The notes beneath the pieces were generated by a model. It did not search any database, was not told the DNA's origin, and worked only from the letters and a program-made list of their open reading frames with translations. Positions 1 to 38,209 of a stretch of 38,209 nt of DNA are shown piece after piece. Numbering within the stretch: position 1 is the first letter of the stretch; each line of letters opens with the position of its first letter. The translations under genes were made by a program, and so were the position numbers. The stretch is from a virus (taxonomy: Duplodnaviria > Heunggongvirae > Uroviricota > Caudoviricetes): IMG/VR virus record IMGVR_UViG_2545824644_000015, positions 1-38,209 of that record, one strand, 5' to 3'.

Positions 1-1158
1 ATGCTCACCGTTAAGCAGATTGAAGCAGCAAAGCCGAAAGAAAAACCATACCGCCTTCTCGATGGTAATGGCCTGTACCTTTATGTCCCTGTATCAGGGA
101 AAAAGGTATGGCAGCTTCGCTACAAGATTGACGGTAAGGAGAAAATCCTGACCGTCGGAAAATATCCGCTTATGACTTTGCAGGAGGCAAGGGATAAAGC
201 ATGGACCGCGAGGAAAGACATCTCGGTTGGCATCGATCCGGTAAAAGCGAAAAAGGCTTCGTCTAACAACAATTCCTTTAGCGCCATTTACAAGGAATGG
301 TACGAGCACAAGAAGCAAGTCTGGTCAGTAGGCTATGCAAATGAACTTGCAAAAATGTTTGATGACGACATTTTACCCATCATCGGCGGTCTTGAGATTC
401 AGGATATTGAGCCGATGCAACTGTTGGAAGTAATCCGCAGATTTGAAGATCGCGGTGCAATGGAGCGAGCCAACAAAGCCCGCAGAAGATGCGGCGAGGT
501 TTTCCGTTACGCTATTGTCACTGGTAGGGCTAAATATAACCCGGCACCTGACCTTGCTGACGCCATGAAAGGATACCGCAAGAAGAACTTCCCGTTTCTT
601 CCTGCAGACCAGATCCCGGCATTCAACAAAGCACTGGCAACATTTTCAGGAAGTATCGTATCGCTCATTGCGACCAAAGTTTTACGCTACACAGCCCTAA
701 GAACGAAAGAGCTTCGTTCCATGCTATGGAAGAACGTCGATTTTGAAAACAGGATTATCACCATCGACGCCAGTGTGATGAAGGGTCGCAAAATTCATGT
801 GGTTCCTATGTCAGACCAGGTGGTTGAACTTCTCACTACGCTAAGCTCTATCACCAAACCAGTATCAGAGTTTGTTTTTGCCGGGCGCAACGATAAGAAA
901 AAGCCAATCTGCGAGAACGCGGTATTACTTGTGATCAAACGAATCGGCTATGAGGGTCTGGAAAGCGGTCACGGATTCAGGCATGAATTCAGCACGATTA
1001 TGAACGAGCACGAATGGCCTGCTGACGCTATTGAAGTGCAACTGGCACATGCCAACGGCGGATCTGTGCGTGGGATTTACAACCACGCTCAGTATCTCGA
1101 TAAGCGCAGGGAGATGATGCAGTGGTGGGCGGACTGGCTTGATGGGAAGGTGGAGTAG
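1..1158 (+). CDS. int: Tyrosine site-specific integrase (P4-like N-terminus)
   Basis: 385 aa ORF; N-terminal MLTVKQIEAAKPKEKPYRL...GLYLYV motif typical of phage integrases; C-terminal HGFRHEF (H-x-x-R) and RGIYNHAQY catalytic-Tyr region. Confidence 0.9.
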   Translation: MLTVKQIEAAKPKEKPYRLLDGNGLYLYVPVSGKKVWQLRYKIDGKEKILTVGKYPLMTLQEARDKAWTARKDISVGIDPVKAKKASSNNNSFSAIYKEWYEHKKQVWSVGYANELAKMFDDDILPIIGGLEIQDIEPMQLLEVIRRFEDRGAMERANKARRRCGEVFRYAIVTGRAKYNPAPDLADAMKGYRKKNFPFLPADQIPAFNKALATFSGSIVSLIATKVLRYTALRTKELRSMLWKNVDFENRIITIDASVMKGRKIHVVPMSDQVVELLTTLSSITKPVSEFVFAGRNDKKKPICENAVLLVIKRIGYEGLESGHGFRHEFSTIMNEHEWPADAIEVQLAHANGGSVRGIYNHAQYLDKRREMMQWWADWLDGKVE

Positions 1159-1330: not shown

Positions 1331-2458
1331 CTATAATTGATCGCCTTCTATTTTTTCAACTCGAGTGGTTGAAACATCATTCTTAAATCCACTCCACCAT
1401 TTTCTTAGCTTATTGTTTATTGGCTTTTCAAAAAACAAATACATCATTATTGATATAAATAATGAAGCAAACAGAGCCATTACTATAAATTTAATTACAT
1501 TTATAGCACCAAGACCAGAAACATTAAAGAACTTGCTCAATGTACTGATTACTATAGTGTGGACCAAGTAAAATGAAAAAGAAGCATCACCTAAAAGTAT
1601 CATAACTTTATTTGATATTATTTTTGAAATAATACCACCATTAAACGAAAACACTAATATTGAAAAGGCCATTGATGGTATAAAAAGCGCATCATACTGT
1701 AATCCATTGCTATTTTGACTTTTTGCCACCATATAGACAGACATTAGGATAAAGACTACAGATGATATTTCAGCAAATGATAGAACTAAATATGACGGCT
1801 TTGACTTAAACTCAAAATATAGTTTACACAATATAATACCGATTAAAAAGTCAGGCAACCTATTAAAAGGGTTTATGTAAAAGAACCAGTGAGAGAACGC
1901 ATCACTAATTTCCCCATAGCTTGCCATGTAAATAACATTAATTAAAATTAACGCAGCAAACAAAGCGAGCATTCTTTTTCGCGCGAAAATTATAAAACAA
2001 AAAGAAACATAAAAGAACATTTCTACAGAAATGCTCCAGGATACTGCATTGAATGAGAAATAGTCTTCCTTATCTACTGAGTAAGACTGAATTAATAGTG
2101 CATTTTTTATTATAGACAATATATTTGGTGAGAATCCACCACCTAATATTGAGTGTCCAACTATAAACACAGTCAAGCAAAGCAAATGTACTGGATATAT
2201 TCTAAATACTCGATGCGCAAGAAAATCAACGAAACTTCCGTTTCCATTACGCAATGAAATAGTAAAACTATATGTTAATATAAACCCAGATAAAATAAAA
2301 AAGAAAGTAACACCAGAATACCCAAGTTTAAAATATTCAAATGATGAAGCAAAATCTCTATTACTTGAATTTTGTATTACCGCCATGTGGCTAAAAAACA
2401 CCCCAAGGGCTGCAAATGCCCTTAGGGATGTCAGGCTATTTAGTCTTTCTGCGCGCAT
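1331..2458 (-). CDS. oac: Integral-membrane acyltransferase-3 family protein, probable O-antigen O-acetyltransferase (serotype conversion)
   Basis: Highly hydrophobic multi-TM ORF; N-terminus LTSLRAFAALGVFFSHM typical of acyltransferase-3; very AT-rich; sits between tailspike and integrase as oac does in Sf6. Start chosen at internal Met 13. Confidence 0.75.
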   Translation of the reverse strand: MRAERLNSLTSLRAFAALGVFFSHMAVIQNSSNRDFASSFEYFKLGYSGVTFFFILSGFILTYSFTISLRNGNGSFVDFLAHRVFRIYPVHLLCLTVFIVGHSILGGGFSPNILSIIKNALLIQSYSVDKEDYFSFNAVSWSISVEMFFYVSFCFIIFARKRMLALFAALILINVIYMASYGEISDAFSHWFFYINPFNRLPDFLIGIILCKLYFEFKSKPSYLVLSFAEISSVVFILMSVYMVAKSQNSNGLQYDALFIPSMAFSILVFSFNGGIISKIISNKVMILLGDASFSFYLVHTIVISTLSKFFNVSGLGAINVIKFIVMALFASLFISIMMYLFFEKPINNKLRKWWSGFKNDVSTTRVEKIEGDQL

Positions 2459-2567
2459 GATACACCTATGTTTTAATGCACAAAAATGCAACAAAAGATT
2501 GATGATACCATAAGCAACAGAAAAATCACATGATCACTTACTCACGTTCAACTTGTACCATCAGAAT

Positions 2568-5108
2568 CTAAATTATCTGCGTCACTGACAATGCTTTCTT
2601 TAACACCACTCCTCCGCTCGTTGTTGCTCCCTTTGAGTACTCAAAGGAGATATTGGCTGAAATGCCAAGATTCTCATCAGGACAATACCACCAAATTCCA
2701 ATAGGGAGCACAGATGCCTTGTCATAACTGACAGTGCGATCATACGACGACTGGTACCCATTGAAGTCATACCATTTAAACCCAGTAATTGCGTTGCCAG
2801 CAATCATGCAATCAGTGCTCATAACTACACCAAACGCATTCTTAATATTAGATGCAACTAATATGGCACTCATTGCGATATTCCTAAAGCTACATGACGT
2901 CACAGAGTATCCATTTGTATTTGCGTTTATAACTCCTATTTCTCCAAGGAAAGTCGTTGTCCTTATAGATCCATTAAAAAAAGATGTTGATTTTGTCCCT
3001 CTAAGACACACTCCCACATCAGACTCAAACGCGCTATCAGATATATCGATATACGTTGAACTTGCTGATGGATTATTCTTATAAAAGCTAACTCCGTAAT
3101 TTAGATTATTGAAATTACAACTATTAACCCTTACAGATGATACTCTTGCATCATATAAATAAAGGCCTGCCGTCATCCCTTCAAGGTGTGTGTCGTTTAA
3201 TGGAAACACTGCATTATCCCCAGCCTCGTTAGGATCATTCATTAATGTTTTAGGGTTTGTGAATTTATTTTTAATTATCGATGTAAACTCATCACAAAAA
3301 AAGTCATGTGATGCGCTATTAATTACCTTAAACCCTGAGAATCCGAATGGCTTCCCACCAGAGATTATTGCCAAACAAAATGCTTGCGCCCCACCGCGTA
3401 TTCTATATTGATTTGATTTTGATTCAAATTTAAAATTGCCTTGTAATGTTGAGTTGGTGATACAACTAAAAGAGTTACCTATGTATGATACGTTATTATT
3501 ATATGATGACGTTATGCTATAGCTGTTTACTTTATTTCCAGATATAAGAACATTATCACAAAAAAATTGAGCACATATCCCTGATTTTGATGTAACAACA
3601 TTATCAGACATTATGCTATGAATAACCATTGAGTGAAAAGTTATGCCCCAATGATCATGGCTATACGAAGTTGATATTAATGGATCGTTTATTATATTTC
3701 CAGTGCAGTTAACATAACAAACTTGCCTATATACTCCTATTGTTGAATCATTCAACCCAAGAGTTGAGCAAATGTTATCTTTAATAGAGCAAACAGAACT
3801 TGATGTGGCATAGCTAAACATAGCTTCTGGGATATTCCCTGTTAATCTATTCCTCTCGAATCTACCAGAATAACAATAATATCGCATCTCAACATGGACA
3901 TTATGGAAGTTACAACCAATCACTTCTGGCTCGATCTGAGACAAAAGCATGATTCTTCTTAGAGCATTGCTACTGCTTTTCATCGTCACACCATCTTTAA
4001 TTTTGAATGGCGTAAGGTTACCTGTTGGGAACCCAAATTTCGCAGTCCCAGCCACCTGATTTACCACCAGAGGTTGCGCCAAAATAGCCTTATTGGTAGT
4101 TGTATGACCTATAATTTTTGTTACCTGAATGAACTGAGATTGGTATCCATTCAAGTTACGTGTAAGTGCCAACCCATCTATGCTGTCAGCAGGTGTGGTG
4201 GATTTTTCCGCTTCATCAATACAGAACGGATATCCATTATCAATGACGACATATTGCCCTGTGCGATCTACACCATCGAGATATACCTCAGAGTGCCCTG
4301 CAGATGCAGGCTGAGAAAAAACTGTCATAGTTGGGAAGTCATATGGCTCAACCCTAAAATGATTACCCAATGTTATTGTGCCACGACCATATATACCTTT
4401 TGCCCCGGCTGGCGCTGTATAATCTGTTGTGGTGGTAAGGTCAGCTCCTGTAATGTTTACTTCTTCTCCGAAGTTAAACGCTGCCGTCAGTGCCTGCTCG
4501 GTTGTTACAAACCTATTGGTGTAGTTAAGGATATGGTTTAAATCATATCCGTTAAGATTCCCTACAGACTTCCAGTTTGAATCTGGTGAACTACCAGGAG
4601 GGACAGTTAATGGAACTGACAGATCACCAGTATAAATGTAATACCACCCAGTTGATGAATAGAATAGTGCCTGATATTTACTTGTTATCGTTGCACCAGA
4701 AGCAAAGGATACATTTTGCAGGCGTTTATAAACATTAAATCTAAAATTTTCATTAGCGTATAAAGAAAACTGATCTGGGTCGTACCCTAAAACATTCGGA
4801 AAATAGAACTGCTTCGCCCCATACGCATCGTACACAGCCATAGAATGGCCTTGCACAGTTACGAACTTGGCAATCTGTCCGTTATATACCGGGTAACCAG
4901 CAGCGTTAATGATGATTGGTTGAGAAACAGGAACGTGAGAACCGTCTTCGTTCTCCACATAAACCTGAATCCGGTTTTCAGGATTTACAGGGTCAGTGTC
5001 AATTTTACCGATATAAATTTCGCCATTAGCTACGGCTTTAAAAGAACGAGCCATAGTGAAGAGTTGCGAAGGCATCGATACAATCACATTAGCTGTAATG
5101 TCTGTCAT
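2568..5108 (-). CDS. Tailspike protein (P22-type head-binding N-domain fused to divergent receptor-binding domain)
   Basis: 846 aa; N-terminal ~115 aa [45 protein letters not shown]... matches the conserved P22/Sf6/HK620 tailspike head-binding domain as remembered; rest is an AT-rich, Asn/Ser/Thr-rich beta-helix-like domain. Confidence 0.9.
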
Positions 5109-32035: not shown

Positions 32036-32686
32036 ATGAAAACTCAATTGATGGGAGAGCGCATTCGCGCTCGGAGAAAAGAACTCAAGATCAGGCAGGC
32101 CGCACTTGGAAAGATGGTCGGCGTGTCTAATGTTGCCATATCTCAGTGGGAACGCTCTGAGACAGAGCCAAATGGAGAGAATCTTCTCGCCCTGGCTAAT
32201 GCGTTGAAGTGTTCCCCTGACTATCTGATGAAAGGAGAGGAAAGTCTTTCAAACATTGCCTATCACAGTAGGCATGATCCAAGAGGGTCATACCCTCTGA
32301 TTAGCTGGGTGAGCGCAGGATGCTGGATGGAAGCTGTAGAACCATATCATAAGCGTGCAATAGATAACTGGTACGATACAACCGTAGACTGTTCAGACGA
32401 TTCGTTTTGGTTGGACGTGAAGGGAGACTCAATGACGGCTCCGGCAGGTCTCAGTATCCCTGAAGGAATGATAATACTCGTCGATCCTGAAGTAGAGCCG
32501 CGTAACGGGAAACTGGTAGTTGCAAAGCTCGAAGGAGAAAACGAGGCAACTTTCAAGAAGTTAGTTATTGATGCAGGCAGGAAGTTTCTAAAACCACTTA
32601 ACCCACAATATCCGATGATCGAGATCAACGGGAACTGCAAAATCATCGGCGTAGTTGTCGATGCAAAACTAGCAAACCTTCCATAA
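32036..32686 (+). CDS. c2: C2 repressor (P22 immC type, LexA-like autocleaving repressor)
   Basis: 216 aa, near-identical to P22 C2 as remembered; HTH N-domain and S24 peptidase C-domain. Confidence 0.95.
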   Translation: MKTQLMGERIRARRKELKIRQAALGKMVGVSNVAISQWERSETEPNGENLLALANALKCSPDYLMKGEESLSNIAYHSRHDPRGSYPLISWVSAGCWMEAVEPYHKRAIDNWYDTTVDCSDDSFWLDVKGDSMTAPAGLSIPEGMIILVDPEVEPRNGKLVVAKLEGENEATFKKLVIDAGRKFLKPLNPQYPMIEINGNCKIIGVVVDAKLANLP

Positions 32687-32777: not shown

Positions 32778-32806
32778 TTGACCATTAATTAAAGAGATCT
32801 TAAATT
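32778..32806 (+). promoter_or_regulatory. PL promoter with OL operators
   Basis: TTGACC-17 bp-TAAATT; overlapping P22-type operator palindrome attaaagagatcttaaatt. Confidence 0.7.
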
Positions 32807-33087: not shown

Positions 33088-33387
33088 ATGGCAGTAGTCA
33101 TTACATATCTGGCTGACGATAACGCCAGAAATCGCCGCAGAGCACGCAGACAGGCTCAACGTGAACAGGCAATGCAAGAGCAGCGACTGGCGCGAAAAAT
33201 TGCGCTAAAGCTCTCTGGTTGCGTCAGAGCAGACAAAGCAGCATCACTCGGAAGCCTTCGCTACAAGAAGGCAGAAGAAGTCGAGCGTAAACAGAACCGT
33301 ATTTACTACCGCAAGCCACGCAGTGAAATGGGTGTGACTTGTGTTGGTCGCCAGAAAATGAAATTAGGCAGCAAACCACTTATTTGA
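33088..33387 (+). CDS. N-like transcription antiterminator
   Basis: 99 aa; arginine-rich motif NARNRRRARRQAQREQ near N-terminus; C-terminus GVTCVGRQKMKLGSKPLI resembles lambda N C-terminus; first gene after PL/nutL. Confidence 0.75.
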   Translation: MAVVITYLADDNARNRRRARRQAQREQAMQEQRLARKIALKLSGCVRADKAASLGSLRYKKAEEVERKQNRIYYRKPRSEMGVTCVGRQKMKLGSKPLI

Positions 33388-34248: not shown

Positions 34249-34419
34249 ATGCAACAGTTCGCTATTGCAGGGGCGGCATCGGTTCGCCCTTTCAACCCAA
34301 TTTTATCGGTGCAGCATTCACGAAAAAATATTTTAACCGGAGCAGACTTTAAACAACCAAGAATGAAAAGTTTGCTCGAAAAGCTTTGGGATATTTTGAA
34401 ACAACAAGGCCGTCCATGA
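34249..34419 (+). CDS. CIII-like protein (putative FtsH inhibitor)
   Basis: 56 aa MQQFAIAGA...LLEKLWDILKQQGRP; resembles lambda CIII ends (MQYAIAG...DILNQPG); aaggag RBS. Confidence 0.5.
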   Translation: MQQFAIAGAASVRPFNPILSVQHSRKNILTGADFKQPRMKSLLEKLWDILKQQGRP

Positions 34420-34586
34420 GTTTTACAGATAACTGGTCAGACGAAGAATTCATTCGTCAGATGAAAGAATTAATCGGTAACGAAGGAGATATTCATGTCA
34501 CTTGCAACCACAGTGAAGGAGAGCAAGTTACAGAGACGCATGTACACGCAGCAGGCGTTAATGTATCGCCAGAAGGGAGATCGTGA
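34416..34586 (+). CDS. Hypothetical protein (kil position)
   Basis: 56 aa; ATGA overlap with upstream stop; overlaps next ORF in another frame. Confidence 0.35.
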   Translation: MSFTDNWSDEEFIRQMKELIGNEGDIHVTCNHSEGEQVTETHVHAAGVNVSPEGRS

Positions 34587-34665
34587 AGGTGTTCGCGTAT
34601 TTTTAAATGCGGCAAAGACTGAAGTATTAAATCAGCGTTATTTCCTTGGGCCATGTCCATTCTGA
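34495..34665 (+). CDS. Hypothetical basic protein immediately upstream of erf (arf position)
   Basis: 56 aa MSLATTVKESKLQRR...; aggagat RBS; ends 10 nt before erf start. Confidence 0.4.
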   Translation: MSLATTVKESKLQRRMYTQQALMYRQKGDREGVRVFLNAAKTEVLNQRYFLGPCPF

Positions 34666-34675
34666 GAACAATCAT

Positions 34676-35281
34676 ATGAGCAAAGAATTTTACGCAAGAC
34701 TGGCAGCTATTCAGGAGAATCTGAACGCGCCAAAGAATCAGTACAACTCATTCGGAAAATATAAATACAGAAGCTGCGAAGACATTCTTGAAGGCGTTAA
34801 GCCGCTACTGAATGGCCTGTTTTTATCAATCAGCGATGAAGTTGTGTTGATTGGTGATCGGTATTATGTGAAAGCCACGGCAACTATTACCGATGGCGAA
34901 AACAGTCATACGGCAACCGCTCTTGCACGAGAGGAAGAAAGCAAGAAAGGAATGGATTCTGCACAAGTTACTGGAGCTACAAGCTCTTATGCACGCAAGT
35001 ATTGCCTCAATGGTTTGTTCGGCATTGATGATGCGAAAGATGCAGATACAGACGAGCATAAACATCAGCAGAACGCAGCAGCAAAGCAATCAAAACCATC
35101 ACCTACACCTGAACAGGTTCTAAAGGCATTCACTGACGCAGCAATGCAAAAAAACACCGTAGAAGAGCTTAAACAGGCGTTCGCCAAAGCGTGGAAGATG
35201 CTCGAAGGCACACCGGAGCAGCACAAAGCGCAGGACGTTTACAACATCAGACGAGATGAATTAGAAGGGGCAACTGCTTAA
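34676..35281 (+). CDS. erf: Erf single-strand annealing recombinase
   Basis: MSKEFYARLAAIQENLNAPKNQYNSFGKYKYRSCEDILEGVKPLL... near-identical to P22 Erf N-domain as remembered. Confidence 0.9.
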   Translation: MSKEFYARLAAIQENLNAPKNQYNSFGKYKYRSCEDILEGVKPLLNGLFLSISDEVVLIGDRYYVKATATITDGENSHTATALAREEESKKGMDSAQVTGATSSYARKYCLNGLFGIDDAKDADTDEHKHQQNAAAKQSKPSPTPEQVLKAFTDAAMQKNTVEELKQAFAKAWKMLEGTPEQHKAQDVYNIRRDELEGATA

Positions 35282-35661
35282 TGGCACATTCGATTACAGT
35301 AAGACTAAACAAACCCGCAAGAGAGTTTCAGGCCGGGGAAAATATCGGATTCAACATCCGTGCTGGCGTTCAGTATTACGATCGCCAGACAAAAAAGAAA
35401 GAATGGACAAACTACAGCGCCGTTGTATTTGCCAAGCCTGGAGCGCAAGCGGATTACTACCGTAGTGTTCTTGTTGAAGGTGGCATTGTGGAAATTACCG
35501 GAGAAAACATCAGGGTTGATGTTTATCAGGGGCAAAATGGTCAATCAATCACCCTTGAATTACTGAATGCAAAGATTGGATTTGCAGCTTCAGGAAATGG
35601 CCAGCAGCAAAGTAGTAACCAGCAGAACACTCCTGAATACGACGATTCCATCCCCTTCTGA
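35281..35661 (+). CDS. Putative single-stranded DNA-binding protein (SSB-like acidic C-terminal tail)
   Basis: 126 aa; C-terminus ...EYDDSIPF resembles the SSB partner-binding tail (D-D-x-I-P-F); directly downstream of erf. Confidence 0.5.
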   Translation: MAHSITVRLNKPAREFQAGENIGFNIRAGVQYYDRQTKKKEWTNYSAVVFAKPGAQADYYRSVLVEGGIVEITGENIRVDVYQGQNGQSITLELLNAKIGFAASGNGQQQSSNQQNTPEYDDSIPF

Positions 35662-35684: not shown

Positions 35685-35981
35685 ATGCCAGCGCCTCTGT
35701 ATGGTGCGGATGACCAGCGCCGCTGTTCCGGCAAATCCGTATCGGAGGTGCTGGATAAATTCAGAAAAAACTACGACCTGATAATGTCGCTACCGCAGGA
35801 AACGAAAGAGGAAAAGGAATTTCGCCACTGTATATGGCTTGCAGAGAAAGAAGAACGCGAGCGAATTTACCAGACATCAATCCGACCATTCCGCAAAGCC
35901 ACATATACCCACTTCCCTGAATATATCGACCCGCGCCTGCGTAATTACCGCTCACGCTATGGCGCTATCAGTAATGACTGA
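35685..35981 (+). CDS. Abc2-like anti-RecBCD protein
   Basis: 98 aa [10 protein letters not shown]...[13 protein letters not shown]; position after erf as in P22; identity from memory only. Confidence 0.5.

Positions 35982-37205: not shown

Positions 37206-38209
<1,004 letters not shown>

Follow-up and report, generated by a model that had tools for sequence, protein, structure and literature searches.

The SSB type described here is known from phage HK97. A 2025 Genome Research study of 325 lambdoid phages named the HK97 gp40 type 'SSB-1b', on the basis of an AlphaFold 3 fold like that of bacterial SSBs and of its place in the recombination (Rec) module, and placed HK97 gp40 at no more than 15% identity to the SSB-1 of ES18 (PMC12315714). 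[quoted passage not shown] A 2026 preprint (July) calls the equivalent Gp31 of HK75/HK446 'uncharacterized'. Phage records nearly always annotate the gene as 'hypothetical protein', and it stands under this label between erf and abc2 in HK022, HK446, HK542, CUS-3, Sf101, phiv205-1 and many Stx phages.

A second described system is the SSB of HK620 (HkaK, DUF669, 'SSB-2'), which belongs to another protein family, has no homology to bacterial SSB and is partnered by Sak4 instead of Erf (PMC12315714, PMC5928155). It occupies the slot immediately upstream of abc2 in a P22-like Rec module and has an acidic tip ending in PPF. This tip (NDYPPF) is needed for Sak4 to bind SSB-coated ssDNA and for a tenfold stimulation of recombineering (PMC5928155). 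The HK620 protein offers the best experimental model of how the SSB described below may work.

We analysed the 38,209-nucleotide stretch of IMG/VR record IMGVR_UViG_2545824644_000015, here called the window, and the SSB-like gene that it carries in a Rec module of the order erf, ssb, abc2 (Table 1). The gene is of a kind that is already known, since the HK97 gp40 type has been named SSB-1b (PMC12315714) and PHROG 44 carries an SSB label. We conclude, with a probability of roughly 0.8, that its product works in the Rec module as a functional ssDNA-binding protein and belongs to the SSB superfamily.

Taken in its entirety, the window is a P22-like podophage of E. coli, whose nearest relatives are phiv205-1, CUS-3 and Kapi1. 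Its Erf matches PF04404 (E 2e-44) and phrog_155 (E 2e-57), with 76% identity to P22 Erf and 100% identity to HK97 Erf in alignment; the most likely start is the ATG at 34676, the mechanical open reading frame beginning at a TTG at 34646. The genes erf, ssb and abc2 are part of a lambdoid-phage early-left operon; upstream of them lie terminator-like hairpins as well as the repressor gene, PL-like promoter and N-like gene listed in Table 1.

Table 1. Positions of the SSB-like gene, its parts and its surroundings in the window.
Feature	Position	Strand	Basis or remark
Integrase	1..1158		
Tailspike with P22 head-binding domain	2568..5108		
CI/C2-like repressor gene	32036..32686		Upstream of erf-ssb-abc2
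PL-like promoter	32778-32806		Upstream of erf-ssb-abc2
N-like antiterminator gene	33088..33387		Upstream of erf-ssb-abc2
erf, Erf-family single-strand annealing protein, 201 aa	34676..35281	+	PF04404, phrog_155
Coupling junction: Shine-Dalgarno-like run and TAATG (35279-35283)	35264..35283	+	Read from sequence
SSB-like gene, stop codon included	35281..35661	+	Open reading frame listing; phrog_44 match; HK97 gp40 identity
OB-fold domain, residues 1-103	35281..35589	+	
Short disordered linker rich in Q/N/S/G, residues 104-118	35590..35634	+	Low pLDDT, variable in family
Acidic tip E-Y-D-D-S-I-P-F, residues 119-126	35635..35658	+	Sole part matched to E. coli SSB in BLASTP
abc2, encoding an anti-RecBCD protein; third in the Rec module	35685..35981	+	PF11043 E 3e-61; phrog_656 E 1e-55

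The ssb reading frame encodes a protein of 126 residues (MAHSITVRLNKPAREFQAGENIGFNIRAGVQYYDRQTKKKEWTNYSAVVFAKPGAQADYYRSVLVEGGIVEITGENIRVDVYQGQNGQSITLELLNAKIGFAASGNGQQQSSNQQNTPEYDDSIPF) that ends in ...NTPEYDDSIPF*. The first-pass annotation had it starting on the erf stop codon, and this is what the sequence reads: base 35281 is common to the TAA of erf (35279-35281) and the ATG of ssb (35281-35283), giving TAATG. A Shine-Dalgarno-like GAAGGGG run at 35264-35270 lies 10 nt upstream of the ATG, and translation of ssb is probably coupled to that of Erf through the overlap.

HK97 gp40 is the same gene, with the same erf-ssb-abc2 order and the same one-base overlap with erf. The window SSB shows 91-98% amino acid identity to the copies in HK97 (Gp40), HK022, Sf101, HK542 and Stx phages, the value for HK97 Gp40 being 91.3% over 126 residues (tblastn). 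The same arrangement, with this ssb between erf and abc2, is also present in HK446, HK106, CUS-3, the mEp phages and many Stx-converting phages. One difference concerns the C terminus: the HK97 reference record ends in ...YDDSNPILI, as one additional nucleotide, an A placed three codons ahead of the stop, destroys the tip there, whereas the window copy and most others end in ...YDDSIPF.

Beyond these close relatives, the protein matches phrog_44, 'single strand DNA binding protein' (E 3.6e-27), and has 323 matches at E <= 1e-3 in a large protein collection, none of which carries a precomputed Pfam domain with the exception of one unrelated PF00793 on a fused or extended sequence. When 1.84 billion cluster representatives were searched exhaustively by HMM, 219 family clusters (50% identity) were recovered at E <= 1e-3. 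This is a small, discrete family, as only these 219 clusters were found among so many representatives.

The open reading frame is a real gene, and its OB domain is under strong purifying selection. By Nei-Gojobori counts, the OB domains of the window and HK97 copies differ by Sd 5 and Nd 1 (dN/dS about 0.05), comparison with PhiR12_2 reveals zero non-synonymous changes, and the copy in a Serratia prophage differs by 58 synonymous and 23 non-synonymous changes. Across comparisons, the dN/dS of ssb is about 0.05-0.2.

Single-sequence searches with the window protein detect little. Pfam reports no family at E <= 1, PF00436 included; TIGR00621 'ssb' gives 14.5 bits (E 0.033), where the cut-off is 53.95, so that the protein falls below both the Pfam and the NCBIfam thresholds for this family; and phmmer against PDB sequences returns nothing meaningful. 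BLASTP against E. coli SSB aligns the last 30 residues only (11/30 identities) and finds no similarity between the OB domains. Profiles reach further. A 42-sequence alignment compared with E. coli SSB by hhalign gives 89% probability (E 2e-6), and a 62-sequence alignment gives 96.8% (E 2e-10), placing residues 22-93 on SSB residues 31-101. Against PDB sequences the 42-sequence profile is non-significant (best match the SSB 4dam, E 1.2), and significance is reached only with the broader 62-sequence profile, which matches Klebsiella SSB (E 2e-6) and, over the OB domain only (residues 4-116), yeast mitochondrial Rim1 (E 8e-5). PF00436 is itself reached by 6 of the 62 family members (best E 2e-6). 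Judged by these profile matches to SSBs and by the members that reach PF00436, the N-terminal domain is a true but very diverged SSB OB domain. The earlier description of an N terminus unlike that of E. coli SSB thus stands at the level of BLASTP, which aligns the tail alone, and fails at the level of profiles.

The predicted structure agrees with this assignment. An AlphaFold2 single-chain model built on the 42-sequence alignment has a mean pLDDT of 85 and contains a confident OB fold, for which pLDDT is about 95 in residues 1-100 (by block, 90-96 for residues 1-80, 84-94 for residues 81-100 and below 50 for residues 107-119). Its elements are strands 3-8, 14-18, 21-34 and 39-51, a helix at 55-63, and strands 69-74, 76-84, 87-95 and 98-103, an order that is the one of SSB-type OB folds, in which the helix lies between strands 3 and 4 of the barrel. 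Every one of the best 50 Foldseek matches in the PDB is either PriB or an SSB of bacterial or mitochondrial origin (best E 4e-5, probability 1.0, TM 0.4-0.55). In a structure search of BFVD, family members take the top places (TMq 0.76-0.81), and after them come dozens of phage proteins that bear the name SSB. The core of the first-pass annotation, an SSB-like OB-fold protein with a canonical acidic tip beside Erf, is therefore upheld by the model, the PDB fold matches and the profile homology. Identity with PriB was rejected in spite of the PriB fold matches, because the window protein has a linker and a tip and sits in a phage Rec module; PriB we take to be an OB dimer that lacks a disordered linker and an acidic IPF tip and is encoded in an rpsF-priB-rpsR operon.

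The hhalign alignment places Y32, W42, F50 and Y82 on W40, W54, F60 and W88 of E. coli SSB, which we take to be its ssDNA-stacking residues. Among 122 aligned family sequences, 98% have an aromatic residue at each of the positions of W42, Y45 and F50, 92% at that of F24 and 72% at that of Y33 (Y in 66%). At position 82, about 61% of family sequences have Y or F, and gaps occur in others. Y32, W42, F50 and Y82 are thus putative equivalents of the stacking residues, an equivalence of aligned positions and not one read from a DNA complex.

The family shares a common build, in which a conserved domain of ~100 residues is followed by a linker rich in Q, P, G and N and highly variable in length and sequence, with members of 123-215 residues. 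Exactly at the end, 66 of 121 full-length representatives of the 50% identity clusters (about 55%) have [ILVMP]P[FWL], and a further 9 of the 121 have this motif 1-3 residues from the end. The last ten residues of family members contain on average 3.5 acidic and 0.15 basic residues, and the consensus of the last eight is D-F-D-D-D-I-P-F, identical to the tip of E. coli SSB (...MDFDDDIPF). The canonical SSB tip claimed for the 126-residue window protein, ...YDDSIPF, is confirmed by the translation and by this family consensus, and because the tip recurs among the family representatives the window tail is not a chance match.

The tip is absent in about a third of the representatives. The tip-less representatives include truncations and read-throughs (such as ...IPFAPIGLMHNNNLMHCI) as well as a genuine subclass (ending, for example, in ...FNQPQR). 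As some tip-less members still adjoin Erf, the tip is not essential for every member.

Like E. coli SSB, the window protein combines an SSB/PriB-type OB fold, aromatics at the W40/W54/F60/W88 positions, a disordered linker and an acidic ...DD(D/S)IPF tip. The proteins differ in length, and the earlier observation that the window protein is the shorter of the two is correct (126 residues versus 178). It is short because only about 17 residues separate its OB domain from its tip, compared with a linker in E. coli SSB that we take to be about 55 residues. This build, in which a disordered linker joins the OB domain to an acidic tip, is conserved, although the OB domain has diverged beyond detection by BLAST.

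This last observation bears on an alternative function, in which the protein would act foremost as a mimic of the host SSB tail. The DDSIPF tip would capture or titrate SSB-interacting proteins of the host such as RecQ, RecJ, ExoI, RecO and PriA, redirecting them to phage DNA or away from host pathways, and ssDNA coating would be secondary. Such a function would account for a tip consensus identical to that of E. coli SSB despite an OB domain that BLAST does not recognize, and it would suit a gene that adjoins another host-hijacking gene, abc2. However, the OB domain is the most conserved part of the protein and is under strong purifying selection, and it has aromatics at the DNA-stacking positions of SSB, neither of which a pure decoy would need; members that have no tip also exist. 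We regard tail mimicry as an unlikely main function.

The genomic partners of the family were surveyed in individual phage and prophage loci and in two scans for related loci, of which the first gave only near-identical E. coli-type loci and the second, seeded with distant members, sampled diversity. In IMG/VR alone, 389 loci of the family are present. Erf directly adjoins the SSB in the window, HK97, the Serratia prophage and five further loci (L093, L094, L110, L127 and L128). Elsewhere Erf is followed by a 242-residue protein that has no Pfam family and then the SSB (L103), by a YqaJ nuclease and then the SSB (L101, L104), or by an exonuclease and then the SSB (L116). RecT is followed by an exonuclease and then the SSB in Vibrio phage 1.236.O and three other loci (L129, L130, L156), and by a 160-residue protein and then the SSB in Aeromonas phage 4_L372X. 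In a Leminorella prophage the SSB follows Sak4 (PF13479 AAA_24), and in two loci (L122, L126) its context is PD-(D/E)XK nuclease or Gp157. At all examined loci with identifiable neighbours, the SSB homologue lies in a recombinase module, adjoining the recombinase or its exonuclease. A one-base overlap of ssb with the upstream gene is annotated in HK97 and in the Vibrio phage (exonuclease-OB pair) and is present between called genes in the Serratia prophage and the Leminorella prophage (sak4-ssb). Of seven annotated or called loci checked for it, four show the one-base overlap.

These arrangements show ssb to be a shuffled module part and not an Erf-specific partner, since the same SSB family stands beside Erf, RecT plus exonuclease, Sak4, and Erf plus YqaJ. 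This range of partners agrees with the published view that the parts of Rec modules are freely shuffled (PMC12315714). The proposal of a co-evolved annealase/SSB pair in the first-pass annotation is accordingly upheld only in part: it holds as regards tight linkage to a recombinase and probable coupling, and is overstated as regards co-evolution, given partners that include Erf, RecT plus exonuclease, and Sak4. Pairing with three unrelated recombinase classes is also more readily explained by a generic handle directed at the host than by one specific to a recombinase, which is a further point in favour of tail mimicry.

The presence or absence of the tip does not follow recombinase class in the loci compared. 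A division of PPF tips with Sak4 and IPF tips with Erf was considered and rejected, because the Serratia copy beside Erf ends in PPF and the Leminorella copy beside Sak4/AAA_24 ends in DDDIPF. Also rejected was a swap of the Erf C-terminal domain between P22 and the window, the two C termini being diverged but alignable.

Within the Erf loci, an Erf with the C-terminal domain type found in the window ('type A') pairs with an xPF-tipped SSB in the window, in the Serratia prophage and in L127/L128, and three tip-less SSBs (those of L093, L094 and L110) pair with Erf proteins of other C-terminal domain types. P22 Erf has the same type A domain, and P22 has no SSB of its own. Domains other than type A are also found with xPF-tipped SSBs. 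That the domain type varies together with the xPF tip is a weak hint drawn from about ten loci, and given this number and the xPF tips found with other domains the pattern is no evidence of co-evolution. It is possible, though we think it doubtful, that the xPF tip is a peptide that docks specifically on the neighbouring Erf, at its C-terminal domain, and that domain and tip types are exchanged together during shuffling. In that case P22 Erf would use the host SSB, and annealase and SSB would make up a portable pair, complete in itself, that could improve recombineering in hosts other than E. coli.

The surroundings of the gene also bear on what the protein does. Bacterial SSB-family proteins act in replication as well as in recombination, and the phage protein might likewise be a replication SSB that makes up for limiting host SSB, its place in the Rec module being historical. 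Such a role is compatible with our main reading and would match the expression of the gene, alongside further early functions, from the early-left operon, as indicated by the PL-like promoter, N-like gene and terminator-like sites upstream. As the explanation of the gene we consider it quite improbable: wherever neighbours could be identified the examined loci are recombinase modules, not positions beside replication genes, the reading frames overlap by one base in four of the seven loci checked, and the replication genes of the window phage are in the opposite arm, where they occupy the minus strand to the left of the repressor gene.

The slot itself invites comparison with Abc1 of P22, which is encoded between erf and abc2 and likewise overlaps erf by one base. 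The SSB could on these grounds be a functional analogue of Abc1, working with Abc2 on RecBCD instead of on ssDNA. Abc1 is, however, a protein of 94 residues with no SSB-like tip and of unrelated sequence (hhalign probability 0.2%), which rules out identity by slot. A functional analogy is in turn very improbable: to this sequence disparity is added that the family occurs in modules that have no Abc2 match (the Serratia prophage, the Vibrio and Aeromonas phages and metagenomic Erf-SSB-RdgC modules) and that the HK620 protein in the equivalent slot, once called 'abc1', proved to be an SSB (PMC5928155).

As an ssDNA-binding protein of the Rec module, the window SSB would be made in step with Erf through the TAATG overlap. 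It would coat the ssDNA that becomes exposed as the phage replicates and recombines, Abc2-modified RecBCD being one possible source, and would bind it through the aromatics at the positions of W40, W54, F60 and W88 of E. coli SSB. The coated DNA would then display a host-like tip as a docking peptide for Erf, for host SSB-binding proteins or for both, and the ssDNA would thereby be passed on for annealing. Binding to ssDNA, the oligomeric state and all interactions of the tip with partners are what we infer for this protein.

To the known SSB-1b type this analysis adds SSB homology at the level of profiles, the mapping of aromatics onto the DNA-binding positions of E. coli SSB, a family-wide DFDDDIPF tip, the range of recombinase partners and the frameshifted tip in the HK97 reference record. 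For annotation, 'SSB-family single-stranded DNA-binding protein (HK97 gp40 type)' is a safe replacement for 'hypothetical protein'. The activity of phage annealases, and their portability from host to host, depend on SSB tails, as demonstrated for HK620 Sak4 with its own SSB (PMC5928155), and lambda Red-beta is reported to interact with E. coli SSB (PMC6393309). A compact SSB of 126 residues, equipped with a host-type tip and found in the company of Erf, RecT or Sak4, is a natural candidate for a recombineering accessory. The significance of the window SSB is modest, and it offers a clean case in which to ask what phage SSBs serve, be it the recombinase of the phage, the SSB interactome of the host or the two together.

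HK97 Gp40, the type member of the 'SSB-1b' proteins, lacks the canonical SSB tip in its own record because an extra A, three codons 5' of the stop of gene 40, shifts the reading frame. Sequence comparison shows that Gp40 ends in ...YDDSNPILI* (NC_002167 gene 40; HK97 locus L001:4106-4495), whereas the window protein, compared over 35560-35661, ends in ...YDDSIPF*. The extra base is absent from both the window and the PhiR12_2 copy of the gene, which read TTCC-ATCCCCTTCTGA at the site where HK97 has TTCCAATCCCATTCTGA, and is either an error of sequencing or a mutation that arose in the laboratory. In several other members of the gp40-type family (P0129, P0152 and P0157; locus L127) the IPF or PPF tip is not terminal: after it comes a conserved extension of ~15 residues (...IPFAPIGLQHRSILNCM, ...IPFAPIGLMHNNNLMHCI), which looks like recurrent read-through or fusion beyond the usual stop rather than random noise.

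The position of the SSB gene between erf and abc2 (window 35281..35661) is held in P22 by abc1 (L010:7971-8255), with the same one-base start/stop overlap. In sequence, however, abc1 and the window gene have no relationship, and the gene called 'abc1' in HK620 has likewise proved to encode an SSB (PMC5928155). Across P22-like phages, at least three unrelated genes thus occupy the slot between annealase and abc2.

Directly 5' of erf are two 56-aa ORFs that overlap in different frames. HK97 has one 84-aa ORF here (L001:3239-3490), with one of the window ORFs matching its N-terminal part and the other its C-terminal part; two 1-nt gaps around 34543-34551 distinguish the window from HK97. Because the two halves fall into separate PHROGs, the split form may be common. 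According to a 2026 preprint, P2 OLD is triggered by HK75 Gp33, a possible counterpart of these ORFs; the HK75 locus cloned there is Gp33-Erf-Gp31-Abc2, with Gp33 named first.

The window appears to be in phage-map rather than prophage order, because the integrase, acyltransferase and tailspike genes lie at its left end and the early-left genes continue off its right end. The profile match of the right-end ORF suggests that an IS21-family element adjoins the ea region of the early-left arm or is inserted in it.

Features upstream of erf and at the window ends
Feature	Window position	Strand	Assignment
Integrase	1..1158	+	left end
Acyltransferase	1331..2494	-	Acyl_transf_3, possibly an O-antigen modifier; left end
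Tailspike	2568..5108	-	P22 head-binding domain; left end
56-aa ORF	34416..34586	+	phrog_2123, 'recombinase'
56-aa ORF	34495..34665	+	phrog_1723, 'recombinase'
61-aa ORF	37964..38149	-	IstB_IS21 C-terminal end (PF01695, E 3e-23, profile positions 189-238)

In two metagenomic phage modules (L093:2453-5372 and L094:2029-4835) the gene order is Erf, gp40-type SSB, a protein of 251-288 aa that belongs to no Pfam family, and RdgC (PF04381), a position that hints that RdgC may be part of the phage recombination module. The Erf proteins of these modules (L093:2453-3016 and L094:2029-2586) are near-identical over their C-terminal ~50 residues (...SLNNLTDIQAVINQINEWVKG) and show only distant kinship in their N-terminal Erf domains; the SSB partners of both lack an xPF tip (the acidic C-terminal end, such as IPF or PPF). 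Among the Erf proteins compared, namely these two, that of the window (34676..35281) and those of loci L110, L103, L101 and L116, the C-terminal domains are interchangeable, and this exchange may represent shuffling of partner-interaction domains.
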